Shown piece after piece: positions 44,264 to 63,194 of a DNA stretch of 64,000 nt. The notes under the pieces were generated by a model. That model worked only from the letters and a program-made list of their open reading frames with translations. It was not told the origin of the DNA and ran no database searches. The position numbers and the translations under genes were made by a program. The first letter of the stretch is position 1. The number at the start of each line of letters is the position of its first letter. The stretch is from Planctomycetota bacterium (lineage in GTDB: Bacteria; Planctomycetota; UBA1135; GCA-002686595): the NCBI GenBank assembly GCA_044221705.1, contig JBGAOR010000013.1, positions 2,529 to 66,528 on the forward strand. Reading direction: 5' to 3'.

Positions 44264-46312
44264 TTGAGGGCGCTCGCCGGCCTGTTCCTGCTCGCGGCGC
44301 TCCACCCCGCGGCGGCGGCGATGCCCCGCCACGGCGCGGTCTTCCCGCCGCCTCCGACCGGACCTTCGGCGGGCGACGCGCCGCCGCCCGCCCCGCCGCC
44401 CGCGCCGAGCGCCCCCAACGGACCCGGCGCGGCCAACCCGGGTCCCGGTCCGGGGATCCCCGGCGCCACGGGCGGTACGCCCGGATCCGTCCCGACCGGA
44501 ACGCGTCCGTCGGCGACACCGGTTCCGACGGGCGGCGCGCCCGGCCTCGAGCCGCTGAGCTGGGAGCTGTGGTGGCGCTACAACCGCGACGACTTCCTCG
44601 ACCTGAAGTCCAAGGTCGAAGCGATCGGCCCCGTGACGCACGGCGACGCGGGCGCCGAGGCCGACCAGCGCGTGGCCAGCGGGATCGACGCCGCGGTCGC
44701 GGCGTTGTCGCGCGAGAGGCAGCGCGACCTCGTCTCGGGCCTGCTCGTCGCCATCGCGCGCTCGTGCGACGACGCCGCGCTCGCGCGCGGCCCGGAGATC
44801 ACGCGCCTCATCGGCCCGTACGTCGGCGATCCCGACCAGGAGATCGGCGAGACCGCGGCGGCGGCGCTCGGGATCCTGCGGCACCACGCGGCGATCCCGG
44901 AGCTCGCGGCGCTCCTGCACGACGACGAGACCGGCCGCAAGTTCGCGAACGGCCGCGTGTCGGCCCGCACGCGCGCGTTCGCCGCGTACGGCCTGGGGAT
45001 CTCGGCCGCGCGATCGGAGCGCGAGGACCTGCGCGCGTTCGTCGCGCACCACCTGCAGCGCGTGCTGGAGGATTCGCGCGGCGACGCCAGCGCCGACCTG
45101 GCCGCGGCGTGCGTGATCGCGCTGGGCCTCGTCCCGATGCCGGCCGAGACGGACGCCGGCGAGAACAGCGGTTCGATCCATCCCCGCGCGGGCTCGAAGC
45201 CGGACGAGCTCCCGCCGCGTTCGCGCGCCTCGCAAGCGGCGGCGCTCGTGCGCTACCTCGGCGACGACACGCGGCCGGTGCTCGCGCGGGCGCACGTGCC
45301 CGACGCGCTGGCACGGCTCGCGGAGGGCGCCGGGACGGAGCTGCGCGCCGACATCGCGCGCGAGCTCGCGTCCGTGCTGGAGCGCCAGTCGCGCGAGGAC
45401 GCGGGCGTGGTGCGCGGCGCCGTGCTCGCGCTCGGACGGATGGGCGACGCCGACGGCGACGCGGCCGACGCGCGCGTGCGCGCGACGCTGAAGCGCGCGC
45501 TCGACGCGGGCGACGCGCAGGCCCGGCTCTTCGCGCTCGTGTCGCTGGCGCAGGTCGCGACCCGCCGCGGCAGCGCCGAGGACCCCGGCGCGGTGCAGTC
45601 CGAAGTGCAGTCGCTCCTCCTCGAGAGGCTCACGCGCGGCAAGGCCCGCGAGCGGTCGTGGTCCGCGCTGGCGCTCGGGATCCTCGAGCGCGGCCGCGCG
45701 GCGATGCACCGCGAGCCGTCGCCGTCCGTGCGCGCCGCGCTGCGCCGCGCGCTGATCGACGCGTCGGCGCCCGACCAGGTCGGCGCGCTCTCGATCGGCC
45801 TCGGTCTGTGCGCCGACCGCGCGTCCGTGCCGGAGCTCCTGAAGAAGCTCGACGACATCCGCGATCCGGTCGGCCGCGGCTACGTCGCGACCGCGCTCGG
45901 GCTCACGGGAGCGCAGGAAGCGCTCGCGCCGCTGCGCGCGATCCTCGGGAAGTCGCGCTTCCAGCCCGACCTCCTGCGCGAGATCGCGATCGGGCTGGCT
46001 CTGCTCGGAGACGTGGACCTCGAATCGGCCCTGCTCCAGGAACTGCGCGGCGCGAAGAGCCTCGCCTCGCAAGCCAGCGTCGCGCGCGCGCTCGGCTTCG
46101 CGGGCACGCTGGCCACGGTCGATCCGCTGGTGAAGATGCTGGGCGATTCGTCGCTGACGGCCGGCGCCCGCGCGTTCTCGGCCGTCGCGCTGGGGATGGT
46201 CTGCGACCGCGAGAGCACGCCCTGGAACGCGTTCCTCTCGATCGGCGTGAACTACCCGTCGGCCCCGCCGACCTTGTCCGACGGGTCGGCGGGCATCCTC
46301 GACATCCTGTAG
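44264..46312 (+). CDS. secreted HEAT-repeat (PBS-lyase HEAT-like) protein with a Pro-rich N-terminal linker
   Basis: TTG 44264 gives the signal peptide RALAGLFLLAALHPAAAA. A Pro/Gly-rich stretch of about 75 aa follows. Repeated helical pairs (AAAALGILRHHAAIPELAALL, VRGAVLALGRMGD, YVATALGLTGAQEALAPL, ARALGFAGTLATVDPLVKML). An alternative GTG lies at 44192. Confidence 0.7.
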   Translation: MRALAGLFLLAALHPAAAAMPRHGAVFPPPPTGPSAGDAPPPAPPPAPSAPNGPGAANPGPGPGIPGATGGTPGSVPTGTRPSATPVPTGGAPGLEPLSWELWWRYNRDDFLDLKSKVEAIGPVTHGDAGAEADQRVASGIDAAVAALSRERQRDLVSGLLVAIARSCDDAALARGPEITRLIGPYVGDPDQEIGETAAAALGILRHHAAIPELAALLHDDETGRKFANGRVSARTRAFAAYGLGISAARSEREDLRAFVAHHLQRVLEDSRGDASADLAAACVIALGLVPMPAETDAGENSGSIHPRAGSKPDELPPRSRASQAAALVRYLGDDTRPVLARAHVPDALARLAEGAGTELRADIARELASVLERQSREDAGVVRGAVLALGRMGDADGDAADARVRATLKRALDAGDAQARLFALVSLAQVATRRGSAEDPGAVQSEVQSLLLERLTRGKARERSWSALALGILERGRAAMHREPSPSVRAALRRALIDASAPDQVGALSIGLGLCADRASVPELLKKLDDIRDPVGRGYVATALGLTGAQEALAPLRAILGKSRFQPDLLREIAIGLALLGDVDLESALLQELRGAKSLASQASVARALGFAGTLATVDPLVKMLGDSSLTAGARAFSAVALGMVCDRESTPWNAFLSIGVNYPSAPPTLSDGSAGILDIL

Positions 46313-46338
46313 CGGCCGACCGTTCAGCGCGTCGCCGC

Positions 46339-46358
46339 GGGGCAGTAGGCTCTGCCCC
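46339..46358 (+). other. stem-loop abutting the GT4 start codon
   Basis: GGGGCAG (46339..46345), loop taggct, CTGCCCC (46352..46358), followed directly by ATG 46359. It lies 27 nt after the HEAT gene stop. Confidence 0.3.
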
Positions 46359-47486
46359 ATGAAGATCGGCCTCGTCCACGCGCACCCCGGCAGGAATCAG
46401 GGCACAGACGAACACGCCCGGCGCGTCGTCGCGCACCTCGCGGCCCGCGGGGACCAGGTCACGGTCGTGACGAACGCACGCACCGAGCCGCTGGCGACCG
46501 GGACGCATGTCGAGGTCCTGAAGCCGTTCGCCCTGTCCGCCGCGAGTCGCGCGAAGGGCTTCGACGCGGCCGTCGAGGCCTGGTGCGCGAAGGCGAAGCT
46601 CGACGCCGTCTACTCGCTCGGATGCACGTCGAAGTCCGACGTCCTGCGCCTGTCGGAGGGCGTGCGCCAGACGCGGATCGACCTCGCGGCCGATTCGGAG
46701 TACGCACGGTCCGCCGAGGAGAAGGCGTGGCTCGAGATCGAAGCGCGCGGCATGCAGCGCGATCGCGCGAAGCTCGTCGCCGTGCCCTCGGAGCTCGTGG
46801 GCAAGGACGCGATGAAGCGCCACCACGTCCTCCCCGAGCTGATCCGCCTCGTGCGGCCGGGCATCGACCTCGACATGTACTCGCCCGAGCTCCACGAGCA
46901 GATGGGCGCCCTGTCGCGCAAGTCGTTCCAGATCGACCCGCACGAGTTCGTCGTCGTCTTCGCGGCCGACGACTGGCACCTGCACGGCTTCGATCGGCTG
47001 CTCAAGGTGTGGGATGCGGTGTCGGCGAGCCGCGCCGGAGCGCACCTGCTCGTCGCGGGCGCCGAACCGGACCGCGCGAAGTACGAGAAGCAGGTGGAGG
47101 CCTCGCGCTGCAAGGACGCGGTCCGCTTCGCGCCCCCGGGCACGGACCTCGCGCGCGTGATCCACGCGGCCCACCTCTTCGTGCTGCCCACGCGCTACGA
47201 CGCGTTCTCGCGCGCCGGGCTGGCCGCGCTCGCGTCCGGGGTGCCGGTCGTCACGACGGCGGCGAACGGGCTGGCGGAGCTGATCGACGAGGACGTGAAC
47301 GGCATCGCGCTGTTCGGCGACGATTTGCGACAGACGCTGTACCAGCAGCTCCTGTCGTGGACGAAGCCCGAGCGCGCGCGCGCCGCCCGCGATTCGGCGC
47401 GGAGCGCGGCCGAGCGCTGTCCGCTCGAGTCGGAAGCCCGCGACGCGGCAGCGGCGATCGACGAAGCGGCCGCGACGCGGACCTAG
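46359..47486 (+). CDS. glycosyltransferase family 4 (GT-B, RfaG-like)
   Basis: MKIGLVHAHPG N-terminus and the C-terminal GT1/GT4 core (FVLPTRYDAFSRAGLAALASGVPVVTTAANGLAELIDEDVNG). Confidence 0.85.
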   Translation: MKIGLVHAHPGRNQGTDEHARRVVAHLAARGDQVTVVTNARTEPLATGTHVEVLKPFALSAASRAKGFDAAVEAWCAKAKLDAVYSLGCTSKSDVLRLSEGVRQTRIDLAADSEYARSAEEKAWLEIEARGMQRDRAKLVAVPSELVGKDAMKRHHVLPELIRLVRPGIDLDMYSPELHEQMGALSRKSFQIDPHEFVVVFAADDWHLHGFDRLLKVWDAVSASRAGAHLLVAGAEPDRAKYEKQVEASRCKDAVRFAPPGTDLARVIHAAHLFVLPTRYDAFSRAGLAALASGVPVVTTAANGLAELIDEDVNGIALFGDDLRQTLYQQLLSWTKPERARAARDSARSAAERCPLESEARDAAAAIDEAAATRT

Positions 47487-47669
47487 ACGGCGGAGAACGC
47501 TGGCCGCGGCGCGGAGCGATCGCCGAGACCGAGCACCGCCGCGGCCGGGAGGCCCGGAACCCGCGTGGAACGGCGCGCGGAAGTGCATACTGCGCGGAGT
47601 TCGGCGCCGGCCGGTGCTAGGAGGCCCCGCCTCCCCGTCGAACCGATCCCTCGCGATGGACTCCAGCTC

Positions 47670-48542
47670 ATGATCGGCACCCTGATCCTCCTCGGCGCCC
47701 TGTGCGCCCTCGCGACCCTCGCCTGGGGGCCGGGCATGCACCTCGAGTACGCCGAGCGCGTGCACCGCCGCCGCCGCGAGCTCCTGCCCGCCGACGTCGC
47801 GAAGCTCATCGACGCGGAGCGCGCGGCCTTCGACTACGGCAACCTCGCGGCCGACATCATCAACTTCAAGGCGTTCGGCGGCGCGTACAGCCACTGCCAC
47901 CGCTGGGCCATCGTCGAGGAGATGCGCGAGCTGTCGACCTCGCCGCGACAGGAGGCGTTCGTGATGGGCTACCTGTCGCACCTCGCGGCGGACACGATCG
48001 CGCACAACCACTTCGTCCCCTACCACCTGGCCCGCTACGCGCGGACGAAGGGGCTCGGGCACCTGTACTGGGAGCTCAACGCGGACCGCTTCGTGCCCGA
48101 GGCGCGCTGGTCGCGCGTCGCCGGCTTGAAGAACCAGGACGCGCTCGAGGAGCTCGACGACCTCGTGAACCGCACCGTGCCGAAGAAGGCGCTGTCGATG
48201 GGCACGAACAAGGTCATCTTCAACCACGTGCTGCTCGTGTCCGAGCGCGAGCGCTGGCGCGGCGCGATGGCGCGCATCCACCCGATCTCGATGGTCACGC
48301 TCGAGAAGGGCTTCCTGCGGATGTTCCAGGCCGCCGCGGTCGACCGCATCCGGCTCGCGCTGCACCCGCGCGGCTTCCGCGCGATCCAGCGCGTCGACGC
48401 CAACGGCGCCGAGGCGCAGAAGAAGGCGATGAAGGTGCGCACGGGCATCCTCCAGCGCCTCGTCCCGCGCCAGGTGCGCACGGAACGGGCGGAGGAGAGC
48501 GCGCTGGCGTTCCTCGAGGGGATGCAGTCGCCGCCGCCGTAG
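47670..48542 (+). CDS. zinc-dependent phospholipase C-like family protein
   Basis: N-terminal hydrophobic segment, then WGPGMHLEYAE, DYGNLAADI, YSHCHRW and GYLSHLAADTIAHNHFVP, which fits the His/Asp metal-ligand pattern of the family. ATG 47670 preferred over the ORF-track start 47565. Confidence 0.7.
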   Translation: MIGTLILLGALCALATLAWGPGMHLEYAERVHRRRRELLPADVAKLIDAERAAFDYGNLAADIINFKAFGGAYSHCHRWAIVEEMRELSTSPRQEAFVMGYLSHLAADTIAHNHFVPYHLARYARTKGLGHLYWELNADRFVPEARWSRVAGLKNQDALEELDDLVNRTVPKKALSMGTNKVIFNHVLLVSERERWRGAMARIHPISMVTLEKGFLRMFQAAAVDRIRLALHPRGFRAIQRVDANGAEAQKKAMKVRTGILQRLVPRQVRTERAEESALAFLEGMQSPPP

Positions 48543-48551
48543 GCGCGGGGG

Positions 48552-50468
48552 CTAGAAGCGGAACCAGCGCAGCACGAGGTCCGTGCGGTCGCCGTCGCCG
48601 TTGAAGTCCGTGCCCGCTCCGCCCTGCTGCGCCTCGGACGCGATCAGCGCGACGCAGTCCTTCGAACCGAAGCGCGCGAAGTCGACGACGTCGCGCGGGA
48701 GGTCGGAGGCCACGCTCAGGCCGAACGTCGCGCCGGTCGTGACGTTCGTGCGCTCCAGGATGAAGTCCATCTCGTCGCCGTCGGCGTTGATGTCGCGCGA
48801 GTCCTCGACCTCGGACATGCGGTAGAACGCCCAGCCGCCGGCCTGCGTCATCCCGGCCGAGTCCTTGTCCAGCGCCAGGAGCGCGCCGGGGAACACGAGC
48901 CGGTTCGACGAGAAGAACGCGAAGGTGGGGATCGCGTCGTTCACGTCCGTGTCGCCCGGGACCTGGGCCGTGCCCTGGTTCAGCGACACGTTGCCGATGC
49001 GCTCCGTGAACGCGACGCCCAGGCGGTTCTCGGACTCGCGCGGCGAGATCCACGAGGCCTCGACGACCTCGGTACCGCTCGAACCGTGGAAGAAGTCCCA
49101 GTTCGCCGAGCTCGGCGACGGCGAGAGCCAGCCGACCAGGTTCGCGTCGAGCGCGTTGTTCGCGTCGATGTCTCCGCCCGTGGCTTCGCTGGAGACGATC
49201 ACGAAGCGGTTCGAGAGCTCGTACAGCCCGTGCCCGCCGCCCGGCACGTCGAACAGCGCGCGGATCTGCGCGGCCGTGTTGATCGGCAGGATCGGCTCCG
49301 TCAGGGGGTCGTCCGAGATCGCGAGCCAGCGCACGACGCGGTCGTCCGAGGCCCCGTCGTTGTTCAGGTCGCAGGTGTCGTCGCCCTCGGCCACGATCGT
49401 CGCGACGTAGTTCCCGGCGAACGCGATGCGCTCGCGGCCGGCCAGACCGTGGTTGACCGGCGGGTTCATCGCCGGGTCCGCGTTCCAGGCGCCGAACGTC
49501 AGGACGCAGAGGACCTGGTCGGTCGAGTCCGTGTCGTTCGCGGCGCAGTACGCCGGACGGAAGCTGGCACCGACCGCGGCCGAGTTGAGGCTGCCGACGC
49601 CCTGACCGGCCTCGCTGACGAGGAAGCCGACGTGCCAGTCGCCGGCCGCGATCGTCTTCGCGCGCCGCGGGCTGGCCGGATCGACGGCGCGCGCGGTGCA
49701 GCGCGCCACGCTGGTGCTGCTCGTGCCGTCGAGCAGGCCGAGCACGTTCGCGTCGAGGGAGTCGACGTCGCCGTTCAGGCTGCGACCGGCCAGCGTCTCG
49801 TCGAACGCCAGGAACACGAGGCCCTCGTCCTCGCCCAAGAGGCGCGGCGAGAGCTCGCTCACGGTGTCCGCCGTCGCGACCGGGATCGGGACGAGAGGCG
49901 CGCTCGACTCCACGAAGCGCAGGTTGCTGCCGCCGACCCCCGCCGTCGCCGTCTTGGCGGCGTAGACGATCCGGCTGCCGAGACCGAGCACGGCCAGCAC
50001 GGCGTCCGTGGAGAGATCGTCGACGTACACGAGCGTGGGCGCCGCCTCGGACCAGTGCAGCAGCACGTCGTCCGCCTGCATCATGTCGCCGTTCCAGTCG
50101 CGCCCGTCGCGGCCTTCGTCGACGGCGATGTAGAGCTCGTTGCCGGCCCAGGCCACGTCGTCGGCGGCGACGCCCAGCCGGAACTGCGTGTTCGCGGCCG
50201 TGTTCACGACGTGCGCGACCTGGTCGGCGACGTCCCCGTCGCCGTTCAGGATCGTGCCCGGGTTGCCGCTGGAGCTCGTGGCGTCCTCGGCGGCCAGGAA
50301 CGCGATGTAGGCGCCCGAGATCCGTACCGGCGTCGACCCCGCGGTCGCGACGTTCGTCGAGCGGACCAGGAAGCTGACGTTGGCGGAGTCGCTCGATCCG
50401 CCCGAGCAGGCGGCCGCGGCCAGGGTGGTGGTGAGGATCGCGAGGTGGGTCTGCGTGCGGTTCTTCAT
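48552..50468 (-). CDS. lipoprotein with repeated DxDxDG-type calcium-binding loops (FG-GAP / integrin-alpha-like propeller candidate)
   Basis: ATG 50468 gives MKNRTQTHLAILTTTLAAAAC (lipobox). Recurrent loops LNGDGDVAD, DWNGDMMQADD, LNGDVDSLD, DLNNDGASDD, INADGDEMD and DFNGDGDRTD are spaced through the protein. Confidence 0.7.
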   Translation of the reverse strand: MKNRTQTHLAILTTTLAAAACSGGSSDSANVSFLVRSTNVATAGSTPVRISGAYIAFLAAEDATSSSGNPGTILNGDGDVADQVAHVVNTAANTQFRLGVAADDVAWAGNELYIAVDEGRDGRDWNGDMMQADDVLLHWSEAAPTLVYVDDLSTDAVLAVLGLGSRIVYAAKTATAGVGGSNLRFVESSAPLVPIPVATADTVSELSPRLLGEDEGLVFLAFDETLAGRSLNGDVDSLDANVLGLLDGTSSTSVARCTARAVDPASPRRAKTIAAGDWHVGFLVSEAGQGVGSLNSAAVGASFRPAYCAANDTDSTDQVLCVLTFGAWNADPAMNPPVNHGLAGRERIAFAGNYVATIVAEGDDTCDLNNDGASDDRVVRWLAISDDPLTEPILPINTAAQIRALFDVPGGGHGLYELSNRFVIVSSEATGGDIDANNALDANLVGWLSPSPSSANWDFFHGSSGTEVVEASWISPRESENRLGVAFTERIGNVSLNQGTAQVPGDTDVNDAIPTFAFFSSNRLVFPGALLALDKDSAGMTQAGGWAFYRMSEVEDSRDINADGDEMDFILERTNVTTGATFGLSVASDLPRDVVDFARFGSKDCVALIASEAQQGGAGTDFNGDGDRTDLVLRWFRF

Positions 50469-50572
50469 GAAAGTCTCGATCGGTGACCAACGCGCAGGAT
50501 AGCTGGCGGGATCGCGCGGCTGCCACCGCGTTCGCGCTGGAATCGCGCGCCCGTGCACGTTCTGATCCGTGT

Positions 50573-52489
50573 GTGCGCGTCCTCATCGCCTCCGCGCCGC
50601 ATCGCGACACGTTCGGCTACTCGATGCCGCCGCCGGGCCTCCTGCGCCTGGGCGGCTGGCTCGAGCGCGAGGGCGTCGACGTCGCGCTCGTGGACCTGGC
50701 GCACGAGCTGGCCGCGGGGCGACTGCCCGAGGGCGACGGCCTGTGCGATGCCGCGGCGGACCTCCTCCTGCGAGGCGGACCGTTCGACGCGATCGGCCTG
50801 TCGGTGATGGGCGCGACGCTGCCCGCGGGGCTCGCGATCCTGGAGCGGATCCGCGCGCGCGATCGCGCGATTCCGCTCTGGATCGGCGGCCCGGGCACGA
50901 CCGGCGTCGACACCGCGCTCGTCGAGCGCGCGCACTGCGTCGACGTCGTCGTGCGCGGCGAGGGCGAGATCACGACGACGGAGCTCGCGCGCGCGCGCGG
51001 CCTGTCGCCGCACGGCATCGCGGGGCTCACGTGGCGCGACGCCGGCGGACGGGCCGTGCGCGAGCCGGACCGCGCGCCGATCGCCGACCTCGACGCGCTC
51101 GCGCCGTATGCGTGGCATCTCCTGCCGCCGATCGCGGCGTACAAGCGCATCACCGGCGCGGCCGACGGGCTCGTGCCGGTCGACTCGGGCCGCGGCTGCG
51201 TCTACGACTGCTCGTTCTGCACGATCGGGAGGTTCTGGTCGCGGCGCTCGCGCGTGCTGCCGGCGCGCAGGCTCGCGGACGAGGTCGAGGCGCTGCGCGC
51301 GATCGACGGCGCGCACGCGGCGTACCTGTGCCACGACCTCTTCGCGGCGAACCGCGCGCACGCCGTGCAGTTCTGCGCCGAGATGGTCGCGCGCGGGAAT
51401 CCCGTGCCGTGGGAAGTGCGCGCGCGCGCCGACCACCTGGACCGCGAGCTGCTCCAGCTCATGGGGCGCGCCGGCTGCTACCGCGTCCTGCTCGGCATCG
51501 AGTCGGCGGCCGAGAGCGTGCGCGAAGCGTGCGACAAGTCTCTGCGCCCCGGCACGGACCTCCTGACGGTCGTGCGCGACTGCGTCGAGGCGGGCGTGAC
51601 GCCGATCCTGTCGGTGATCCTGGGGCTGCCGGGCGAGGGGCCGGCCGAGCTCGAAGCGAGCCTCGACTTCTGCGCGCGCGCGGCGCTGCTCGGCGGCGTG
51701 AACGTGTCGCTGCACCTCGTGAACCCGCAGCCGGGTTGCACGCTGGGCGAGGAGCACGGCGCGAGCGCGCGCGCGGTGCCGGGGATCCCGCCCGACATGG
51801 CGCGCGGCGCGGGCGAGACGGCGGCGGAGCGCGCCTGGATCGACGCGCACCCCGATCTCTTCACGACGTTCGCGCTGCTCGCCGGCGACCCGGTGGGCCA
51901 AGGCGCGCTGTCCGAGATCGCGAGCGAGCTGCCCGAGGTCCTCCACCGGTATCCGCGCACGTTCGCACTGCTCGGCCGCGCGCTCGAAACGAGCGCGCAC
52001 GGCGGGTTCGCGGCCTGGAAGCGCCACGGCCGGAGCTTCGAGGCCTTCGCGCGCGTCCAGCGCGATCCGCTCGTCGACGACGTGCTGGCCGTCGAGCAGG
52101 CCGGCGTGCGCGCCGCCGCACTGGCCGTGCGCGCGCCGAGCGTCGGCCCGCGCGCGCGCGGCGTGCTCGTCGAGACACGCTGCGACGTGGCCGCCGTGTT
52201 CGAGGCCCTGCGCGGCGGCCGCGAGCTGCCCCGCGCCGAACCGCGCGCGTCCTGGATCTGCGCCGTGCCCGCGGACCCGTCGCGCGCGCTGGCCGGAATC
52301 CGCACACTGCGCGTGTCGGCCGACGTCGCGCGCCTCCTGCAGGCGCTGGACGGCGCGCGCCCGATCGACGAGCTCGAGGCCGCGCGCCCGGGCTTCGCGG
52401 GCGCGATCGCGAGCCTCGAACGCGCCGGCCTCGTGGAATCGGGAACAGGAACGGCCGCCGCGGAGCGGATGGAGACGACGACACCATGA
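50573..52489 (+). CDS. B12-binding-domain radical SAM protein (class B) with a PqqD/RRE-like C-terminal segment
   Basis: GTG 50573 (VRVLIASAPH); GC3 is poor upstream. Rossmann-like B12 domain (IGLSVMGATL ... VVVRGEGE). Canonical CVYDCSFC at 51197..51220. The last 70 aa or so (VSADVARLLQALDGARPIDELEA ... IASLERAGLVE) resemble a winged-helix RiPP recognition element. Confidence 0.85.
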   Translation: MRVLIASAPHRDTFGYSMPPPGLLRLGGWLEREGVDVALVDLAHELAAGRLPEGDGLCDAAADLLLRGGPFDAIGLSVMGATLPAGLAILERIRARDRAIPLWIGGPGTTGVDTALVERAHCVDVVVRGEGEITTTELARARGLSPHGIAGLTWRDAGGRAVREPDRAPIADLDALAPYAWHLLPPIAAYKRITGAADGLVPVDSGRGCVYDCSFCTIGRFWSRRSRVLPARRLADEVEALRAIDGAHAAYLCHDLFAANRAHAVQFCAEMVARGNPVPWEVRARADHLDRELLQLMGRAGCYRVLLGIESAAESVREACDKSLRPGTDLLTVVRDCVEAGVTPILSVILGLPGEGPAELEASLDFCARAALLGGVNVSLHLVNPQPGCTLGEEHGASARAVPGIPPDMARGAGETAAERAWIDAHPDLFTTFALLAGDPVGQGALSEIASELPEVLHRYPRTFALLGRALETSAHGGFAAWKRHGRSFEAFARVQRDPLVDDVLAVEQAGVRAAALAVRAPSVGPRARGVLVETRCDVAAVFEALRGGRELPRAEPRASWICAVPADPSRALAGIRTLRVSADVARLLQALDGARPIDELEAARPGFAGAIASLERAGLVESGTGTAAAERMETTTP

Positions 52490-54738
52490 TCCAACGTCAG
52501 GACTTCCCCGTGAGCCTCGTGTTCCCGCCGCAGGGGCACTTCACGCAGCCCTACCTGGCTCTGCCCTGCATCAAGGGCTGGCTGCGCGCCCACGGGTTCG
52601 ACGACGTCGAGCTGCTCGACGCGAACATCGAGGCCTACGACGCGTTCCTGTCGGGCGACTACGTCGCGCGCTGCGCCGAGCGCGTCGCGACGCGCCTTCC
52701 GCTCGAGCGCTTCGCCGCGCGCGAGTCGCTGGGCTTCCGCGACCTGGCCGCGTTCCGCGCCGCGTCCGAGTGCGCGGCCAGCGGCGCCGCCGTCGCGGCG
52801 CGCATCGACGAAGCCAAGTCGGTGATGCGCGGCGGCGCGTTCTTCGACGCCGAGCGCTACGTGCCTGCCGTGCGCACGATCTACCACGCGCTGCGCATCG
52901 TCTCGGCCGCGCACTTCCCGAGCGAATTGACGCCGCACAACTTCACGATGCGGTACGGCAACGACCGCTCGGCCGAGGTGCTCCTGGCGACGCTCGACGA
53001 GGACGAGAACCCGTTCCTCGCCTTCTACCGCGAGCGCGTGCTTCCGCGGCTCGTCGCGCGCCGTCCGCGCGTGCTGGGCCTCTCGATCATCTACGGCTCG
53101 CAGCTCGTGCCGGCGCTGACGCTGGCGCGGCTCGTGAAGGCCGCGCTGCCCGACTGCCACGTCACGGCCGGCGGCGGGTTCCTGGCCTACATCGGCCGGA
53201 AGCTGATGAACGCGCCGGGCATGGACGCGTGCCTCGACAGCCTGATCTTCCACGAGGGCGAGGCGCCGATGCTCGCCCTGTGCGAGGCGCTGCGCGACGG
53301 ACGCGCGCTCGGGACGATCGGTTCGCTCTCGTGGTTCGACCGCACGGGTGGCGCCGCGCGCCTCGTCGAGAACGAGCGCGGGCACCCGATCCGGCTCGAC
53401 GACGCGCCCGCCCCGGACTTCGACGGCCTGCCGTTCGGGCTGTACCTCAGCCCCGAGATCGTCGTCCCCTACGACGTGAACCGCGGGTGCTACTACGGCG
53501 AGTGCACGTTCTGCACGCTGCCGACCGTCATCGGCCCGGGCTACCGCACGCGCAGCGCGAAGACCATCGTCGACCACGTGCTGCAACTGCGCGATCGACT
53601 CGGGACGAGCCACGTGAACTTCATCACGGACTGCATGCCGCCCGGGCTGCTGCGCGACCTGCCCGAGGAGCTCATCGCGCGCCGCGCCGGCATCCACTGG
53701 TGGGCCGACGCGCGCGTCGAGCCCAAGGCCTACACGAAGGAAGGCTGCGAGCGGCTGGTCGAGTCCGGCTGCCGCAAGCTGCTCTTCGGCTTCGAGACGG
53801 CCACGCCACGCCTCCTGAAGCTGATGAAGAAAGGGCAGAGCCTGAAGTCCGTCGTGGACGTCGCGCGCAACTGCTCGGACGCCGGGATCAGCGTCACGTT
53901 CTTCGCGATGGTCGGGTTCCCGAGCGAGACGCAGGCCGAAGCGCAGGCGACCGTCGACTTCCTGGTCGAACACGCCGACATCGTGCGCGAGGTCTCGCTG
54001 CAGACGTTCCACATCGACGAGGAGAACCACGTCTACCGCAACCCGTCGGAGTTCGCGGTGCGCATCCGCTCCGACCCGACGGCCGACCTGCAGCTCTACC
54101 ACGACTACGAGGCCGAGGTCGGGATGACGCAGGGCGAGGCGGCCGAGATGTTCGAGCGGATGATGGCCGCGCTGCGCGCGCGCTATCCGCTCTTCTCCGG
54201 CGACAACATCTTCTGGTTCATGCAGAAGAGCCACTACTTCCTGCACCTGGCGCGCGGGACGAGCCCGGACGAGTTCGTCGCACGCTGTCGCCGCCGCGCG
54301 GAACGGCGCGCCGACGAGTCGCCGGATCCGACGCTGGCGGTCGGCGCGGACTGCGCGAGCGTCGCGATCCCCTTCTCGTGGGCCGAGGCGGTCGCGGGCC
54401 TCGGCACTCCCGCCGCGCGGGCAGCGCGGCCGGAGTTCCTGACCGGCCGCTACGTGGCCGACGCCGAGGAGCAGGCCGCCGCGGGCCTCGCGCCGCTCTG
54501 GCCGGCGGCGCGCGCGCTCGTCTACTGCGGCGAGACGGCCGAATTCGCCGAGGTGCGGACGGACGGCGCGCGCGCGCTGGCCGCGCTGCGTACGGCGGGC
54601 AACCTCGGCGCGCTCAGCTCGGCGCTCTCCGCGCCCGCGCGCTCGAACCTGGAACGCTTCGCGGGCGAGCTCGCGAAGCGCGGTATCCTCGTGCGCCGCG
54701 AGGAACCCTCCCGCACCACCGTCCGAGGTCCGCGATGA
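52486..54738 (+). CDS. B12-binding-domain radical SAM protein with a CX4CX2C cluster motif and an RRE-like C-terminal segment
   Basis: ATGA overlap with the upstream rSAM stop. N-terminal B12-like domain (LVFPPQGHFTQPYLALPCIKGWL ... LIFHEGEAP). CYYGECTFC at 53488..53514. TIM-barrel core (LLFGFETATPRLLKLMKKG). The tail EVRTDGARALAALRTAGNLGALSSAL ... FAGELAKRGILV is RRE-like. Confidence 0.85.
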   Translation: MIQRQDFPVSLVFPPQGHFTQPYLALPCIKGWLRAHGFDDVELLDANIEAYDAFLSGDYVARCAERVATRLPLERFAARESLGFRDLAAFRAASECAASGAAVAARIDEAKSVMRGGAFFDAERYVPAVRTIYHALRIVSAAHFPSELTPHNFTMRYGNDRSAEVLLATLDEDENPFLAFYRERVLPRLVARRPRVLGLSIIYGSQLVPALTLARLVKAALPDCHVTAGGGFLAYIGRKLMNAPGMDACLDSLIFHEGEAPMLALCEALRDGRALGTIGSLSWFDRTGGAARLVENERGHPIRLDDAPAPDFDGLPFGLYLSPEIVVPYDVNRGCYYGECTFCTLPTVIGPGYRTRSAKTIVDHVLQLRDRLGTSHVNFITDCMPPGLLRDLPEELIARRAGIHWWADARVEPKAYTKEGCERLVESGCRKLLFGFETATPRLLKLMKKGQSLKSVVDVARNCSDAGISVTFFAMVGFPSETQAEAQATVDFLVEHADIVREVSLQTFHIDEENHVYRNPSEFAVRIRSDPTADLQLYHDYEAEVGMTQGEAAEMFERMMAALRARYPLFSGDNIFWFMQKSHYFLHLARGTSPDEFVARCRRRAERRADESPDPTLAVGADCASVAIPFSWAEAVAGLGTPAARAARPEFLTGRYVADAEEQAAAGLAPLWPAARALVYCGETAEFAEVRTDGARALAALRTAGNLGALSSALSAPARSNLERFAGELAKRGILVRREEPSRTTVRGPR

Positions 54739-54926
54739 AGACGCCCGAGAAGAAGAACGACGCCGACCCCGCGCAGAACCCGGCCCGCATCCCCGGCCCG
54801 AAGAAGCGCGAAGAGCGCGGCGCCGAACCGGCCGTGCCGGAGATCGACTTCGCCAAGCTCGACCTGCGGGTGGAGGTCGTGGACGAGCGCATCAGTCCGG
54901 GCGAGACGAACGTGTTCGACAAGTGA
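54735..54926 (+). CDS. 63-aa peptide, candidate radical-SAM-modified precursor
   Basis: ATGA overlap with the rSAM stop. 61 of 64 codons, stop included, end in G or C (exceptions are gaa, gaa, agt). Translation: MKTPEKKNDADPAQNPARIPGPKKREERGAEPAVPEIDFAKLDLRVEVVDERISPGETNVFDK. Two hairpins follow the stop. Confidence 0.6.
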   Translation: MKTPEKKNDADPAQNPARIPGPKKREERGAEPAVPEIDFAKLDLRVEVVDERISPGETNVFDK

Positions 54927-54960
54927 GCCGCAGCCTTGGGCTGCGAACCACGCGTGACGC

Positions 54961-54992
54961 GCGCGTGAGTCCGGGCTGACGACTCACCGCGC
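54961..54992 (+). terminator. GC-rich stem-loop downstream of the rSAM-peptide operon
   Basis: GCGCGTGAGTC ... GACTCAC(C)GCGC, about 11 bp with one bulge. It is preceded by a smaller hairpin, CGCAGC-cttgg-GCTGCG, at 54929..54945. No U tract, which is common in high-GC genomes. Confidence 0.3.
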
Positions 54993-55246
54993 GTCGCTCC
55001 TCGGCCCCGGCGCGCGCCGCCTGCTCACCCCGTCGTCGGCGCCCGCCGGAACGAGCCCAGCCCGGGCCCCCGCCGCCCGGCTCGCCGTCGCCCGCTCCAA
55101 GCCTCCCGGCCCGCCCCTGCCGACTTCCGTAAGGGACCAGTAAGCTGGAACCAGTCCCACCGCGTCGCGGCGACCCGGACCTGGATCGCCTCGGCGCCCC
55201 ACTGGCTCCTTCTCCCTCGGCATCGACCCGGTGCCGGCTCTCTCCC

Positions 55247-57121
55247 ATGAAGCACGCCTGGATTCCGCTCTCGCTCCTCGCCCTCGCCTCCAGCGCTTTC
55301 GCCGAAGGCACGAAGTACGCGCACAAACCCGCGCCCGCAGGAGTCCCCGCCGCGACGCCGCAGCCGGTGACTTCCTTCATCAACGGTTCGGATTCGTGCA
55401 CGACCCCGGACGTCATCGCGGGCCTCGGACCCCACGGGTTCGACAACTCGGCCGCGACGACGGGAGCGGAGGGCCAGACCGACCCGCTGTGCCTGGCGTT
55501 CGGCTCCACCGCGATCGACCAGGACGTGTGGTTCTCGTGGACGGCGCCCTCGAGCGGGACGGCGTTCCTCGACATCTGCTCGAGCGGCAGCACGGTCGAC
55601 ACGAAGGTCGCCGTGTACTCCGGCTCCGGATGTCCGAGCGGACCCGCGATCGGCTGCAACGACGACGCGTGCCCGGGGCTGCAGAGCAACGTGACCTTCC
55701 CCTGCGTGGCGGGCAACCCCTACACGATCCAGGTCGGCACGTACCCGGGCGCGGGCGGCGGCGTCGGTTCCTTCACGTTCACGATCAGCGCGGGCCCGGG
55801 CAACGATTCGTGCACGACCCCCCAACCGATCGCCGGCCCCGGCCCGCACGCGTACGACACGACGTTCGCGACGACGGGCACGCAGGGACAGGCCAACTCG
55901 CGCTGCTTCATCTTCAACACGTCCGCGATCCAGTCCGACGTCTGGTACACGTGGACCGCCGCCGCGAGCGGATGGGTCGCCGTGGACACCTGCACGGGCG
56001 GACAGCACGACCTGCGCGTGGCCGTGTACGCCGGCGCGGGCTGCCCGGTCGGTGAACCGATCATCTGCGACGACGACGCCTGCGGCACGATCGGCGCCTC
56101 GTCGCGCGCTCCGTTCCTGGCCACCGCCGGCCAGTCGTACACGATCCAGGTCGGCAGCTACCCGGGTCAGGCCGGCGCGCCGGGGTTCTTCACCCTGTCG
56201 CCGTTCACCCCCGCCGCGGGCGATTCGTGCAGCGCGCCGATCGACATCGCGGGCGCGGGGCCCTTCAACTGGGACAACTTCGACGGCGTGACCGGACAGG
56301 AAGGCCAGAACGAGGCTCTGTGCTCCAACGAGATGATCACGCACGACCTGTGGTATCGCTGGACGTCGTACTGCACGTCGAACGTGACCGTCACGCTGTG
56401 CGCGCTCTCGAGCCTCGACACGAAGGTCGCGGTGTACTCCGGCAGCGGCTGCCCGGCGAGTTCGGCCCTGGCTTGCAACGACGACGCCTGCGCGGCCGGC
56501 GGACCTTCCTCGGTCACCTTCGCGGCCGTCGACGGCCAGACCTACATGATCCAGCTCGGCTGCTGGCCGGGCGAGACGCCCGGTGCGGGCGCGTTCACGA
56601 TCACGACGAGCTGCCCGCCGCCGACCGGGACCGTCTACTGCATCGGCGACGGCCAGTCGCCGCACACCGCGTGTCCGTGCGGCAACAACAGCCCGACGGC
56701 GGCCGGCGTGGGCTGCCTCAACTCGCTGGGCAGCGGCGGACGGCTGCGCGCATTCGGGAACCCGAGCCTCACCGACGACAACGACGGCTCGGCCTCGGTC
56801 ACGCTGATCGGCAACAGCATGCCCAACAGCTCGTGCCTCTACTTCCAGGGCACGGCGATGCAGAACGCGGGCAACGGATCGGTGTTCGGCGACGGCCTGC
56901 GCTGCGCCGCCGGCTCGATCCTGCGCCTCGACACGGAGTCGAACGTCGCGGGCACGTCGCAGTACCCGAACCCGTCGCAGCCGCTGCCGCTCTCGGTCCG
57001 CGGGAACGTGCTGTCCCCGGGAACGCGCACGTACCAGGCCTGGTACCGCAACGCAGCGGCGTTCTGCACGGCCTCGACGTTCAACCTGTCGAACGGCGTC
57101 GAGATCGTCTGGGCGCTCTAG
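55247..57121 (+). CDS. secreted protein: three tandem Cys-rich domains of about 135 aa plus the conserved C-terminal domain
   Basis: Signal peptide (IPLSLLALASSAFA). Three repeats, each with DSC..P..IAG.GP, DVW(F/Y).WT, DTKVAVYSGSGCP, C(N/D)DDAC and YTIQVG.YPG. C-terminal module 56632..57118 contains ACPCGNN and WYRNAAAFC..STFNLSNG. Confidence 0.75.
   Translation: MKHAWIPLSLLALASSAFAEGTKYAHKPAPAGVPAATPQPVTSFINGSDSCTTPDVIAGLGPHGFDNSAATTGAEGQTDPLCLAFGSTAIDQDVWFSWTAPSSGTAFLDICSSGSTVDTKVAVYSGSGCPSGPAIGCNDDACPGLQSNVTFPCVAGNPYTIQVGTYPGAGGGVGSFTFTISAGPGNDSCTTPQPIAGPGPHAYDTTFATTGTQGQANSRCFIFNTSAIQSDVWYTWTAAASGWVAVDTCTGGQHDLRVAVYAGAGCPVGEPIICDDDACGTIGASSRAPFLATAGQSYTIQVGSYPGQAGAPGFFTLSPFTPAAGDSCSAPIDIAGAGPFNWDNFDGVTGQEGQNEALCSNEMITHDLWYRWTSYCTSNVTVTLCALSSLDTKVAVYSGSGCPASSALACNDDACAAGGPSSVTFAAVDGQTYMIQLGCWPGETPGAGAFTITTSCPPPTGTVYCIGDGQSPHTACPCGNNSPTAAGVGCLNSLGSGGRLRAFGNPSLTDDNDGSASVTLIGNSMPNSSCLYFQGTAMQNAGNGSVFGDGLRCAAGSILRLDTESNVAGTSQYPNPSQPLPLSVRGNVLSPGTRTYQAWYRNAAAFCTASTFNLSNGVEIVWAL
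55382..56630 (+). repeat. three in-frame tandem repeats of about 405 nt (protein-domain repeats)
   Basis: Repeat units start near 55382, 55799 and 56219. Conserved Cys positions and motifs recur at the same spacing in all three. Confidence 0.6.
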
Positions 57122-60351: not shown

Positions 60352-60864
60352 TCAGATCCGGTGCATGAACCGGAACACGCGCTCGTGCATCACGCGCACG
60401 ACGTAGTCGTCCTGGCCGCCGAGGCACTCCATGCAGCGCTTCAGCTCGCCGAACTTCGAGCCCGGCGGCAGCTCGACGGTCAGCACCATGTGGAAGTAGC
60501 CCTCGATCATCTTCTGCGAGATGTCGTGCACGCTGCCGCCGGCCTGCGCGAGCGCGCCGGTGATCTCGGCCAGCACGCCCGGACGGTTCCGCCCCACCGC
60601 GGTGATCACGACGCTCGTCGCCGGATCGTCGTCGCTGGGCTCGGGCAGGTTCGGCAGCGAGCGCCGCGCGCGTTCGGCGTCGGGGCCGCGGTCGGGCGCG
60701 GGCTCGGCGTACGTTCCGCCAGTGCCGGTCACGATCCGCACGCCGAGCTCCTCCGCGACGGAGAGCGCGTGCGGCGTCGCCAGCGTCTCGCCGTCCACGA
60801 CGATCTGCCCGCCGGCCGGAGCCAGGCGGCGCACGTCGTCGGCGGTCAGGTAGCGGCGGGCCAC
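60352..60864 (-). CDS. ACT-domain (UPF0237-like) protein with an N-terminal extension, last gene of the BMC shell operon
   Basis: The C-terminal 90 aa (VVITAVGRNRPGVLAEITGALAQAGGSVHDISQKMIEGYFHMVLTVEL) resemble single-ACT UPF0237 proteins. The N-terminal 45 aa or so (YLTADDVRRLAPAGGQIVVDGETLATPHALSVAEELGVRIV) are of unknown function. GTG start lies 13 nt after the BMC-T stop. Confidence 0.7.
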   Translation of the reverse strand: MARRYLTADDVRRLAPAGGQIVVDGETLATPHALSVAEELGVRIVTGTGGTYAEPAPDRGPDAERARRSLPNLPEPSDDDPATSVVITAVGRNRPGVLAEITGALAQAGGSVHDISQKMIEGYFHMVLTVELPPGSKFGELKRCMECLGGQDDYVVRVMHERVFRFMHRI

Positions 60865-60877
60865 GGCGGTGTCGCGA

Positions 60878-61474
60878 TCAGAGGTGGCGCACGAGCTCGG
60901 GGTGCGGGCGCGGGATCACGACCTCGCGTGCGAGCAGGCCGCGCTCCTGGGCCGCGCGCGCACCGGCCGCGACCGAGCTGCGCACGTCGCTGACCTCGCC
61001 GGTCAGCGTGAAGAAGCTCTTCCCGCCCAGGCCGTTCGCGATGCGCACGTCGATCAGGTCGACCGTCGCCGTCTTCAGCGCGACGTCCGCGCTGGAGATC
61101 GTGGCCGCCACCGTCGTCGTCTCGATCACGCCGATCGCGTCGAGCGTGCCGTTGATGCGTCCACCCTTGCGCTTCAGCATCGGCACGACCTGCTCGTGGA
61201 TCTGCGGGATCACGAGCTGGTCGACCAGGTCGGATCCGGCGAGGGCCGCGCCGCGCGCCGCGCTGGCGCGCACGTCGGCGACGGCGCCCGTGAAGAGCAT
61301 CACGTACTTGCCCGGCTGCACCGGCGTCGAGAAGAGCAGCTCGACGCGCGCTTCCTTGAGCACGGCGTCGGCCACCTCGACGCCCTTGGCGACGCTGGCC
61401 AGCTCCAGCACTCCGATCGCCACGTCGAGCTCGGCGTCGTCGCGGACTTCGGGATTGTGGTCGTTGCGGTTCAT
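60878..61474 (-). CDS. BMC-T shell protein (tandem BMC domains), similar to Haliangium BMC-T1
   Basis: Two BMC domains (AIGVLELASVAKGVEVADAVLKEA ... and AIGVIETTTVAATISSADVALKTA ... GKSFFTLTGEVSDVRSSV). ATGA overlap with the upstream BMC-P gene. Confidence 0.88.
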   Translation of the reverse strand: MNRNDHNPEVRDDAELDVAIGVLELASVAKGVEVADAVLKEARVELLFSTPVQPGKYVMLFTGAVADVRASAARGAALAGSDLVDQLVIPQIHEQVVPMLKRKGGRINGTLDAIGVIETTTVAATISSADVALKTATVDLIDVRIANGLGGKSFFTLTGEVSDVRSSVAAGARAAQERGLLAREVVIPRPHPELVRHL

Positions 61475-62804: not shown

Positions 62805-62843
62805 GCCTCACGTGTCCCGCGGCGGCGCCGCGGGATCCGCGTG

Positions 62844-63134: not shown

Positions 63135-63194
63135 CGTCTTCGAACCTCTGCGTGGGGTGTCGGGGGATGCGGGGATCGGTCGTGCGCGAGGCGG

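Follow-up and report, generated by a model that had tools for sequence, protein, structure and literature searches.

The window analysed here, a 64,000-nucleotide stretch of DNA from a bacterium of the phylum Planctomycetota, contains three consecutive genes coding for two radical SAM enzymes and a small peptide. The genes of this cassette and the elements on its two sides are as follows (coordinates refer to the whole window).

48552..50468, minus strand: divergent gene of a 638-aa lipoprotein with a lipobox signal peptide and about seven DxNGDGD-like repeats
50573..52489, plus strand: rSAM1 (ORF1), a 638-aa class B radical SAM enzyme
52486..54738, plus strand: rSAM2 (ORF2), a 750-aa class B radical SAM enzyme
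54735..54926, plus strand: peptide gene (ORF3), coding for a 63-aa precursor-like peptide, MKTPEKKNDADPAQNPARIPGPKKREERGAEPAVPEIDFAKLDLRVEVVDERISPGETNVFDK
54954..54998, plus strand: GC-rich hairpin 3' of the peptide gene (about 17 bp; -56.3 kcal/mol, z = -2.54 by RNA folding)

ORF1 is open in frame from position 50483, and the start compatible with its homologues (alignment A2) is the GTG at 50573 (MRVLIASAPHRDTFGYSMPPPG...). ORF2 and ORF3 begin with the ATG codons at 52486 and 54735, and the stop codons of the three ORFs occupy positions 52487-52489, 54736-54738 and 54924-54926, respectively. The ORFs had been described in the initial annotation as chained by ATGA stop/start overlaps, and these were found at both junctions (52486..52489 and 54735..54738). 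The GC content of the genome is 72 per cent, and many spurious long ORFs are present in the window. The GC values of ORF3 by codon position (0.69/0.41/0.94) follow the pattern of the flanking genes, and the phase of the frame plot changes exactly at 54735, where ORF3 starts. Because of this coding pattern and phase switch, the ORF3 signal exceeds what chance would produce in a genome of such composition, and ORF3 is a real gene. The GC content of the cassette equals that of the genome, which, together with the constancy of its neighbours, argues for vertical inheritance.

Hairpins had been reported to follow the peptide gene, and a strong one was indeed located at 54954-54998. It has no U-tract and does not match the terminator consensus, and the sister strains carry a deletion that includes it. 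Scanning the sequence 3' of ORF3 for terminator and promoter consensus sequences yielded nothing. Rfam gave no match between 48 and 58 kb, indicating that this region contains no cobalamin riboswitch or other known RNA.

Both large proteins carry the combination of features by which class B radical SAM enzymes are recognized (PF02310, PF04055 and a three-cysteine motif). Both domains had been proposed from the sequence, and each protein passed the Pfam gathering scores for the B12-binding domain (PF02310; 44.8 bits for rSAM1 and 37.8 bits for rSAM2) and for the radical SAM domain (PF04055; 56.2 and 66.4 bits). In rSAM1 the B12-binding Rossmann domain (residues 12-138) is followed by the radical SAM core (206-367), a helical region and a winged-helix-like C-terminal tail. 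In rSAM2 the Rossmann domain is interrupted by an insertion of about 130 aa, and is followed by the radical SAM core (332-493), a helical region and an RRE-like C-terminal tail. The cluster motifs and the tails map to the following positions.

51197..51220, plus strand: rSAM1 [4Fe-4S] motif CVYDCSFC, of the form CX3CX2C (C209, C213, C216)
52253..52423, plus strand: rSAM1 C-terminal beta-beta-alpha-alpha-alpha domain (residues ~561-617), a candidate RRE or winged helix
53488..53514, plus strand: rSAM2 cluster motif CYYGECTFC, of the form CX4CX2C (C335, C340, C343)
54511..54678, plus strand: rSAM2 C-terminal RRE-like domain (residues ~676-731)

The two cysteine motifs, already noted in the initial annotation, are conserved among homologues: CVYDCSFC was invariant in 16 diverse rSAM1 homologues and CYYGECTFC nearly invariant in the 77-sequence rSAM2 alignment A4. 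The spacing in rSAM2 differs from the canonical CX3CX2C, and in the alignment of the two enzymes it appears as a one-residue insertion relative to rSAM1. Homologues are numerous for both proteins (more than 120 full-length sequences with 50-82% identity for rSAM1, more than 120 with 61-99% identity for rSAM2), and the two enzymes share only 28% identity with each other across the core.

The top NCBIfam model for both enzymes was ApyD (NF050148), with 183.5 bits for rSAM1 and 109.9 bits for rSAM2; these scores are far below the equivalog cutoff of 750 bits, and only positions ~24-429 of the 645 in the model are aligned. TIGR03975, a model of proteusin-type radical SAM C-methyltransferases of RiPP maturation and the second-best model for rSAM2, scored 62 bits with rSAM1 and 102 bits with rSAM2 (cutoff 281.85). 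The values obtained for rSAM1 and rSAM2 were 97.7 and 44 bits with the BchE model, 95.6 and 66 bits with HpnJ, and 69.6 and 78.1 bits with the ladderane model. For these B12-rSAM models of lipid and cofactor pathways (BchE, HpnJ, HpnR and the ladderane model) the scores are far under the cutoffs of 360-650 bits, and they are under the ApyD scores as well. Taking into account that ApyD ranks first for both proteins and TIGR03975 next for rSAM2, the nearest curated models for the two enzymes are those of RiPP enzymes, ahead of BchE and the hopanoid enzymes. The absence of a SPASM domain was borne out, as Pfam, NCBIfam and inspection of the sequences revealed neither SPASM nor any other auxiliary Cys cluster in either enzyme. 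Without a SPASM match or a C-terminal Cys cluster, and with a Cys-free peptide, the cassette does not have the hallmarks of sactipeptide or ranthipeptide systems. No link to defence systems was found: PADLOC returned a single weak generic radical SAM match, to rSAM1, and nothing else.

The initial annotation had compared the C-terminal segments of both enzymes to PqqD-type RiPP recognition elements. The sequence strings cited for this likeness are present, but neither isolated tail matched the Pfam PqqD family (PF05402) at E<=10. In AlphaFold2 models (pLDDT 84 for the rSAM1 tail, 82.8 for the rSAM2 tail) the tails share the order beta-beta-alpha-alpha-alpha, each with only two predicted strands (E27-32, E42-47, H49-57, H64-70 and H74-83 in rSAM1; E37-42, E47-52, H53-65, H68-73 and H77-92 in rSAM2). 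When the rSAM2 model was compared with the PDB by Foldseek, RREs ranked at the top, with TbiB1 (5v1u/5v1v, probabilities 0.90/0.72/0.82) followed by PqqD (3g2b), the lasso peptide protein B1 (6jx3) and CteB (5why); these matches are weak, with E-values of 0.3-7 and TM-scores of 0.4-0.5. The model thus places the rSAM2 tail nearest to lasso RREs and PqqD. For the rSAM1 tail, Foldseek found no convincing RRE match in the PDB, and its candidacy as an RRE draws on the shared order of secondary structure elements and on faint matches to ApyI (E=0.034, NCBIfam) and to PbtF (E=0.17, profile against PDB sequences). Profile searches against PDB sequences gave exclusively sub-threshold matches, which for rSAM1 were winged-helix regulators besides PbtF, and for rSAM2 spurious armadillo and designed proteins. 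Comparison of the two tails with each other by hhalign gave a probability of only 27%, too low to establish a common origin.

The peptide is highly charged and Cys-free, as originally described (26 of its 63 residues, 41%, are charged, and there is no Cys). Alignments divide it into three parts.

54735..54842, plus strand: residues 1-36, a hypervariable, charged, Pro-rich N-terminal region in leader position, weakly constrained
54843..54884, plus strand: residues 37-50 (IDFAKLDLRVEVVD), a conserved amphipathic segment
54885..54923, plus strand: residues 51-63 (ERISPGETNVFDK), a nearly invariant C-terminal core

Conservation is thus concentrated in the last ~26 residues and comes close to invariance over the final 13. 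The N-terminal region is free to vary in length and sequence, the sole part kept being an REER(G) patch in the close subclade; such hypervariability at the leader position is unusual among RiPP leaders. Column conservation over 67 loci gave the pattern LD[FL]xxLDLx[VI]Ex[VI][ED] for residues 37-50, which makes this segment a candidate recognition sequence for the RRE-like tails. The core motif ERIxPxETN[VI]FDK is always C-terminal in the homologues, and the version in the window ends in NVFDK. Core residues R, P, E, T, N, F, D and K were invariant in 67 of 67 loci, where they are specified by several synonymous codons, and the core is the probable place of one or more modifications. Compared with the sister strains the peptide gene has 7-8 nucleotide differences, every one of them synonymous. 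This, and the use of several codons for invariant residues, shows that selection acts on the protein sequence of the peptide; the existence of homologues (21 close ones, and 61 clusters at 50% identity) is in line with a conserved small ORF under purifying selection.

Neither NCBIfam (E<=10) nor Pfam contained a match for the peptide. Five of six diverse homologues were likewise unmatched in NCBIfam at E<=10, and the sixth produced a chance match to amphi-Trp (E=0.015). A family of radical SAM-modified peptides associated with FtsH in Myxococcota had been named as a possible relative; since NCBIfam gives nothing even at E<=10, this family is not a match. The host itself is a planctomycete of the Saltatorellus clade and no member of Myxococcota. 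The earlier statement that the system fits no named class therefore stands as far as NCBIfam families are concerned, and a literature search found no description of the peptide or of the cassette family.

The triad rSAM1-rSAM2-peptide, whose conservation had been suggested as a test of the annotation, recurs in 80 species-level Planctomycetota genomes, including those of Engelhardtia mirabilis and Saltatorellus ferox. Of the 68 loci that could be evaluated, 66 contained exactly one peptide ORF with the core motif at its end, and this ORF stays with the enzymes even where unrelated genes sit between the genes of the cassette. Within the Saltatorellus group, about 66 species possess the conserved cassette together with its peptide. 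The identity of rSAM1 to its window counterpart co-varies across the loci with that of rSAM2 (r = 0.89). A selected ribosomal precursor gene clustered with modifying enzymes, the first part of the general definition of a RiPP, is what these loci contain.

Genes found in the neighbourhood code for a lipoprotein, a phospholipase C (PLC), a GT4 glycosyltransferase, a PPC/GBD protein, a DUF695 protein and a glyoxalase. About 45 of the 80 loci have a homologue of the divergent lipoprotein upstream of rSAM1 (29-75% identity); the lipoprotein itself had no match in Pfam, NCBIfam or the PDB. In agreement with the initial annotation, which saw no adjacent protease or exporter, none is conserved near the cassette across the loci. 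The 624-aa PPC/GBD protein encoded downstream was considered as a possible protease or partner and rejected, since the sister strains and the loci outside the close subclade lack it. The genes inserted within the cassette in 16 loci were also rejected as additional components, because they are heterogeneous and most of them are on the opposite strand.

To our knowledge, few enzymes are as hard to assign as class B radical SAM enzymes, and only a handful of those that modify peptides have been characterized. The characterized peptide-acting B12-rSAMs known to us, ApyD, PoyB/PoyC, the bottromycin methyltransferases and MpcB, can all be taken as methylating models. ApyD, a Tyr beta-C-methyltransferase of aminopyruvatide biosynthesis in Burkholderia thailandensis (PMC10635010), is, like the window enzymes, a B12-binding radical SAM protein; it has about 640 aa, is described as RRE-containing and is the best curated model for both of them. 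It acts on the penultimate aromatic residue before a C-terminal Asp (..YLYD), and the window core has an invariant Phe-Asp in ..VFDK. The resemblance is confined to the N-terminal ~430 positions (see above), and the aminopyruvatide pathway has one B12-rSAM, whereas the window cassette has two. Its partners, the MNIO ApyH, ApyI, the P450 ApyO and the SAM methyltransferase ApyS, are absent from the window locus, the ApyA precursor, which ends in GYLYD, is unrelated to the window peptide, and its hosts are Pseudomonadota and Actinomycetota rather than Planctomycetota.

Class B radical SAM paralogues that C-methylate different unactivated side-chain carbons (Val, Ile, Pro, Phe) are known from PoyB/PoyC and BotRMT1-3 (PMC9204698). 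These pathways, the former represented by TIGR03975, are similar to the cassette in that several paralogues serve one ribosomal peptide. The window peptide, however, does not have the NHLP or Nif11 leader of the PoyB/PoyC type, as judged from the lack of an NCBIfam match, the epimerase, dehydratase, YcaO and protease partners of the proteusin and bottromycin pathways are missing, and the candidate recognition domains are fused to the enzymes. The compact RiPP locus for clavusporin (mpc) in Streptomyces has a B12-rSAM that introduces beta-methyl groups at many positions of a short core; the locus is broadly conserved in one phylum and has a physiological rather than an antibiotic role (PMC10849626). 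In contrast to the window cassette, mpc includes a transporter, an S9 peptidase and a DUF5825 partner protein, and an acidic follower comes after its hydrophobic core, whereas the window core is acidic and C-terminal.

The cassette is real, and from its sequence it looks like an undescribed peptide-modification system. We propose that it is a new, vertically inherited, RiPP-like peptide-maturation cassette of the Saltatorellus clade, which probably C-methylates the invariant C-terminal core; the probability of this reading is, in our estimate, about 0.62. One operon would yield a precursor of 50-75 aa together with two radical SAM enzymes of the cobalamin-dependent class B, which are distant paralogues. 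The C-terminal winged-helix or RRE-like domain of each enzyme would dock on the segment LD[FL]xxLDLx[VI]Ex[VI] and bring the adjacent core ERIxPxETN[VI]FDK to the active site. If the known enzymes are a guide, each would most likely add a methyl group to an unactivated side-chain carbon, and the two probably target different residues. Ile, Pro, Val and Phe are the residues in the core for which there is precedent, and Phe-61 in ...VFDK may parallel the penultimate Tyr that ApyD methylates in ...YLYD. As no protease or exporter is linked, the product may act inside the cell as a modified small protein, or it may be trimmed by unlinked enzymes. We infer the role of the peptide as substrate, the mode of docking, the methylation and the target residues from these comparisons. 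What speaks for the proposal at the level of sequence and models is the ATGA-coupled operon, ApyD as the nearest model, the conserved triad, the confident models of the tails and the position of the rSAM2 tail nearest to RREs; what speaks against it is the hypervariable leader region, the missing PqqD match, Foldseek E-values of 0.3 or higher and the lack of a conserved protease or exporter.

An alternative, which we regard as unlikely, is that the core is modified and then excised by unlinked peptidases to give a housekeeping cofactor or metabolite, as PQQ is derived from PqqA and mycofactocin from MftA; methylation would not be required. With its near-invariance and constant C-terminal location, the core is like that of precursors of the MftA and PqqA type. 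The gene occurs once per locus, keeps a stable chromosomal position across about 80 species, shows no sign of horizontal transfer and lacks the linked immunity, exporter or protease genes expected of an antibiotic RiPP. In the mycofactocin (MftA/B/C) and PQQ (PqqA/D/E) systems, as in the cassette, the precursor is short, its invariant core lies at or close to the C-terminus, and conservation is housekeeping-like across a clade; guidance of the radical SAM enzyme by a PqqD-type RRE would be a further shared trait if the tails act as RREs. Chemistry other than methylation is known for B12-rSAMs, the ring-contracting OxsB being an example with the same CX4CX2C cluster motif as rSAM2 (PMC9204698). 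OxsB, a class B enzyme of oxetanocin biosynthesis, differs, however, in having a nucleotide substrate, no peptide substrate and no RRE, and we detected no overall sequence similarity between it and the window enzymes. Moreover, the known peptide-derived cofactor pathways use radical SAM enzymes of the SPASM or twitch type that lack B12 domains, usually with the RRE as a separate protein, and always have several tailoring genes clustered; neither SPASM-type enzymes nor such tailoring genes are seen here. Conserved genes of dependent oxidoreductases are not found nearby, and the Tyr of the mycofactocin and PQQ cores is absent, as are Trp and Cys, these three being the usual formers of redox-active groups.

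The sequence invariant throughout the clade would also fit a small protein with a function of its own. Such a protein could be a regulator, scaffold or subunit, with the enzymes acting on a lipid, a tetrapyrrole or a component of the cell envelope, an explanation that we find quite improbable. Planctomycetes have an unusual lipid chemistry, rSAM1 has a real if weaker similarity to BchE and HpnJ (97.7 and 95.6 bits), genes of a phospholipase C, a glycosyltransferase and a lipoprotein are among the neighbours, and sequence models do not recognize the tails as PqqD. These three neighbours are, however, missing from roughly half of the loci or more, the highest scores belong to the RiPP enzyme models ApyD and TIGR03975, and RREs are the best structural matches of the rSAM2 tail. 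In addition, the peptide gene accompanies the enzymes through many rearrangements, and precursors typically combine a disordered, variable N-terminus with conservation at the C-terminal end. That ORF3 is open only by chance, given the high GC content of the genome, with the radical SAM genes as mere neighbours, could be supposed from the abundance of spurious long ORFs in the window and the lack of a family match, but has to be rejected as extremely improbable in view of the coding GC phase, the 61 homologue clusters, the purely synonymous divergence and the presence of the peptide in 66 of 68 loci.

Returning to the proposed maturation cassette, its chemistry is directly testable, as the system is compact and well delimited, consists of three genes with a sharply defined 13-residue candidate core, has a pair of distantly related enzymes with, apparently, one substrate in common, offers about 66 natural sequence variants, and occurs in two hosts that are in culture, Saltatorellus ferox Poly30 and Engelhardtia mirabilis Pla133. 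The layout of the putative precursor would combine a freely varying N-terminal 'leader' with recognition and core functions located within the last ~26 residues. Neither the family models in NCBIfam and Pfam nor the papers that we found cover this peptide. Its conservation in a deep lineage, the fixed chromosomal position and the lack of export and immunity genes suggest a physiological role: the product could be a cofactor or a modified small protein and not an antibiotic. If true, this would be rare among RiPP-like systems. In a more far-reaching version, which we consider rather unlikely, the product would be a clade-defining, vertically inherited modified small protein or peptide-derived cofactor, found solely in the shapeshifting Saltatorellus lineage of Planctomycetota and made by two RRE-fused B12-rSAMs. 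At least one of these, rSAM2 with its CX4CX2C motif, would catalyse a reaction other than simple methylation on the invariant ISPxETNVFDK end, and the system would represent a new class of RiPPs with a housekeeping instead of an antibiotic role.

The best-supported reading of the rSAM1-rSAM2-peptide cassette is that of a RiPP-like maturation system. Since the window is GC-rich (70-77%) and crowded with spurious long ORFs, each ORF was checked individually. The genes of the cassette, with their GC contents at codon positions 1/2/3, and the neighbouring genes discussed here are the following.

43823-48542, plus strand: HEAT-repeat protein, GT4 glycosyltransferase and Zn-dependent phospholipase C genes, upstream of the cassette
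48552-50468, minus strand: divergent gene for a 638-aa lipoprotein with about seven DxNGDGDxxD-like repeats (calcium-binding, propeller-like)
50573-52489, plus strand: ORF1, rSAM1, 638 aa; GC 0.79/0.56/0.95
52486-54738, plus strand: ORF2, rSAM2, 750 aa; GC 0.70/0.50/0.95
54735-54926, plus strand: ORF3, 63-aa peptide; GC 0.69/0.41/0.94
55247-57121: gene for a 624-aa secreted protein with PPC and GBD_T9SS_assoc domains, within the 2.3-kb segment 54927-57267
60352-63998, minus strand: bacterial microcompartment locus (ACT-domain protein, EutN/CcmL, BMC shell proteins)

ORF1 is open in frame from 50483, but because all aligned rSAM1 homologues start with MRVL(I/L)ASAPHRDTFGYSMPPPG, the GTG at 50573 was assigned as its start. 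The ORF2 start codon (ATG at 52486) overlaps the TGA that ends ORF1 (52487-52489), and the ORF3 ATG (54735) is arranged in the same way with respect to the ORF2 TGA (54736-54738), as had been described in the initial annotation for both junctions (52486-52489 and 54735-54738); all motifs and tail strings quoted there were also found in the sequence. The third-position GC phase changes precisely where ORF2 gives way to ORF3 and is gone beyond 54926. Of the hairpins reported to follow ORF3, a GC-rich 17-bp hairpin is present 3' of the gene (54954-54998, z = -2.5 in RNA folding), but it did not match the terminator consensus in a consensus scan.

The assignment of the two large proteins as B12-binding radical SAM enzymes was confirmed: both exceeded the Pfam gathering thresholds for the B12-binding and the Radical_SAM domains. 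The top NCBIfam model for both was NF050148 (ApyD), with 183.5 bits for rSAM1 and 109.9 bits for rSAM2 against a cutoff of 750 bits; the second-ranked model for rSAM2 was TIGR03975, a RiPP C-methyltransferase family (102 bits). Models of BchE, HpnJ, HpnR and ladderane-lipid enzymes scored lower, and no NCBIfam model reached its own cutoff for either enzyme. Taken together, the Pfam and NCBIfam scores show that both are class B rSAM enzymes nearest to peptide C-methyltransferases and members of no curated family. The only solved relatives detected by sequence were AprD4, 9ccb, TsrM and TokK. With 28% identity over the core, rSAM1 and rSAM2 are distant paralogues. The cluster motif of rSAM2 (53488-53514) is CX4CX2C, with one residue inserted relative to CX3CX2C, a spacing that is kept in 77 homologues and has a precedent in the ring-contracting B12-rSAM OxsB (PMC9204698). 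In agreement with the initial annotation, a SPASM domain is absent from both enzymes, as is any Cys cluster at the C-terminus.

The C-terminal tails had been likened to PqqD-type RREs. Neither tail matched Pfam PqqD, and searches of PDB sequences with tail-alignment profiles gave only sub-threshold matches: for tail 1 winged-helix regulators and the thiopeptide RRE protein PbtF (E=0.17), for tail 2 nothing meaningful. Tail 1 matched the NCBIfam ApyI model weakly (E=0.034). AlphaFold2 models, built from alignments of 70 (rSAM1) and 77 (rSAM2) sequences, were confident, with pLDDT values of 84 and 83, respectively, and in both the predicted fold consists of two strands followed by three helices. 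In Foldseek searches of the PDB the top three matches of the rSAM2 tail were to the leader-bound lasso-peptide RRE TbiB1 (prob 0.90, 0.72, 0.82), followed by PqqD (3g2b), lasso B1 (6jx3) and the RRE-bearing sactisynthase CteB (5why), with E-values of 0.3-7 and TM-scores of 0.4-0.5; the rSAM1 tail model had no convincing match. From these results combined, the rSAM2 tail is likely, though not proven, to be an RRE, and for the rSAM1 tail the same is plausible, equally short of proof.

The exact 63-aa peptide sequence is also encoded on metagenome contigs approximately 97% identical to the window in DNA, where the 7-8 nucleotide differences in ORF3 are all synonymous and in third positions. A word-indexed search yielded 21 peptide homologues; when 1.84 billion cluster representatives were searched exhaustively with a profile, 61 clusters were obtained, nearly all 44-87 aa long and matching to the last residue. 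The N-terminal half, a charged, Cys-free region rich in Pro, is hypervariable in both sequence and length; the C-terminal pattern is LD[FL]xxLDLx[VI]Ex[VI][ED]ERIxPxETN[VI]FDK-stop. Among the last 13 residues R, P, E, T, N, F, D and K are invariant in 67 loci. As these residues use two to six different codons in the same loci, the selective constraint on the peptide end acts on the protein and not on DNA or RNA. In two metagenome homologues (P0299 and P0313) ETNVFD(K/T) is not C-terminal and the ORF continues for 17 and approximately 90 residues, respectively; these extensions probably reflect stop-codon loss, frameshift or mis-assembly, and are probably not real follower peptides. Neither the peptide nor its diverse homologues matched any Pfam or NCBIfam model even at E<=10, apart from a chance amphi-Trp hit of one homologue (E=0.015); the curated family of rSAM-modified peptides mentioned in the initial annotation is not a match.

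To assess conservation of the triad, a single genome for each GTDB species was scanned by pattern and tblastn, which gave 132 confirmed rSAM1 relatives; the best 80 of these formed the synteny set. Nearly all 80 loci have Planctomycetota-type labels; for seven the label says only 'bacterium' or 'uncultured bacterium', and two bear Proteobacteria labels (L070, Glaciecola sp.; L079, Paracoccaceae). Among the 80 are two cultured strains, Engelhardtia mirabilis Pla133 and Saltatorellus ferox Poly30. An rSAM2 homologue (56-90% identical) follows rSAM1 on every long-enough contig except L057, and 66 of the 80 loci contain exactly one ETN[VI]F-bearing ORF. Twelve of the remaining 14 are truncated contigs; the other two, L057 and L089, are the only evaluable loci that break the triad. 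In L057 (11896-13225) the 1.3 kb following rSAM1 contain no rSAM2, and in L089 (17622-21752), where both enzymes are present, the next 4 kb downstream lack a peptide ORF. Across loci, rSAM1 and rSAM2 co-vary in their identity to the window (r = 0.89). Extra sequence separates cassette genes in 16 loci, where the three genes still stay together; the inserted ORFs, mutually unrelated and mostly on the opposite strand, were rejected as additional components.

Conserved genes for a protease, an exporter or immunity are lacking around the cassette; the initial annotation had likewise noted that no protease or exporter is adjacent. The DxNGDGD-repeat lipoprotein gene, whose product had no Pfam, NCBIfam or PDB sequence match, is upstream of the cassette in about 45 of the 80 loci, and about 28 loci have a Zn-dependent phospholipase C gene close by. 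The HEAT-repeat/GT4/phospholipase C gene order is the same in the closest relatives (L011, L012, L016-L019); genes downstream of the cassette vary between loci. RecG, MgtE, GH38 and the microcompartment locus also lie in the window neighbourhood, and two relatives (L011, L012) have the same microcompartment locus with an aldehyde dehydrogenase downstream of the cassette. Segment 54927-57267 is missing from the approximately 97% identical sister-strain contigs (L001-L010) and present in the more distant L014 and L016, which suggests that the sister lineage lost it recently by deletion; the breakpoint is directly after the peptide stop codon, adjoining the hairpin. The cassette and the genome have the same GC content. 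The three-gene unit appears to be inherited vertically, in a stable chromosomal neighbourhood, across the Saltatorellus lineage.

In a RiPP-like maturation system the enzyme tails would dock on the conserved amphipathic segment of the peptide (residues 37-50 in the window), and the invariant C-terminal 13 residues would be the core. The B12-rSAMs shown to act on peptides (PoyB/PoyC, BotRMT1-3, ApyD, MpcB) all C-methylate side chains (PMC10635010, PMC10849626, PMC9204698). By analogy, Ile, Pro, Val and Phe of the core, residue types with precedent, are candidate methylation targets, and the presence of two paralogues suggests two different sites or reactions. The main rival explanation casts the small protein as a partner, not a substrate, with a lipid or a cofactor as the target of the enzymes. 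This is less likely in view of the ranking of the HMM scores, the RRE-like tails and the tenacious linkage of the genes. Taking the maturation system as the preferred reading, the lack of a protease or exporter and the clade-wide invariance of the core leave two options for the product: it could be a modified intracellular small protein, or a cofactor that unlinked enzymes release from the peptide.

The type of system, a class B rSAM enzyme with a recognition domain and a precursor, is already known. ApyD, described by its discoverers as an RRE-containing B12-rSAM, acts on a precursor that ends in GYLYD, where it makes (2S,3R)-beta-methyltyrosine at the penultimate position (PMC10635010), and the invariant near-C-terminal Phe-Asp of the peptide parallels the Tyr-Asp on which ApyD acts. 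The cassette family was not found in the searchable literature and is outside every curated model. It differs from the known examples in its two B12-rSAMs with fused putative RREs, its hypervariable N-terminal 'leader', its acidic, invariant C-terminal core, the absence of a linked protease or exporter, and its apparent vertical inheritance across the Saltatorellus lineage. As two cultured strains carry the cassette, the system is directly testable.
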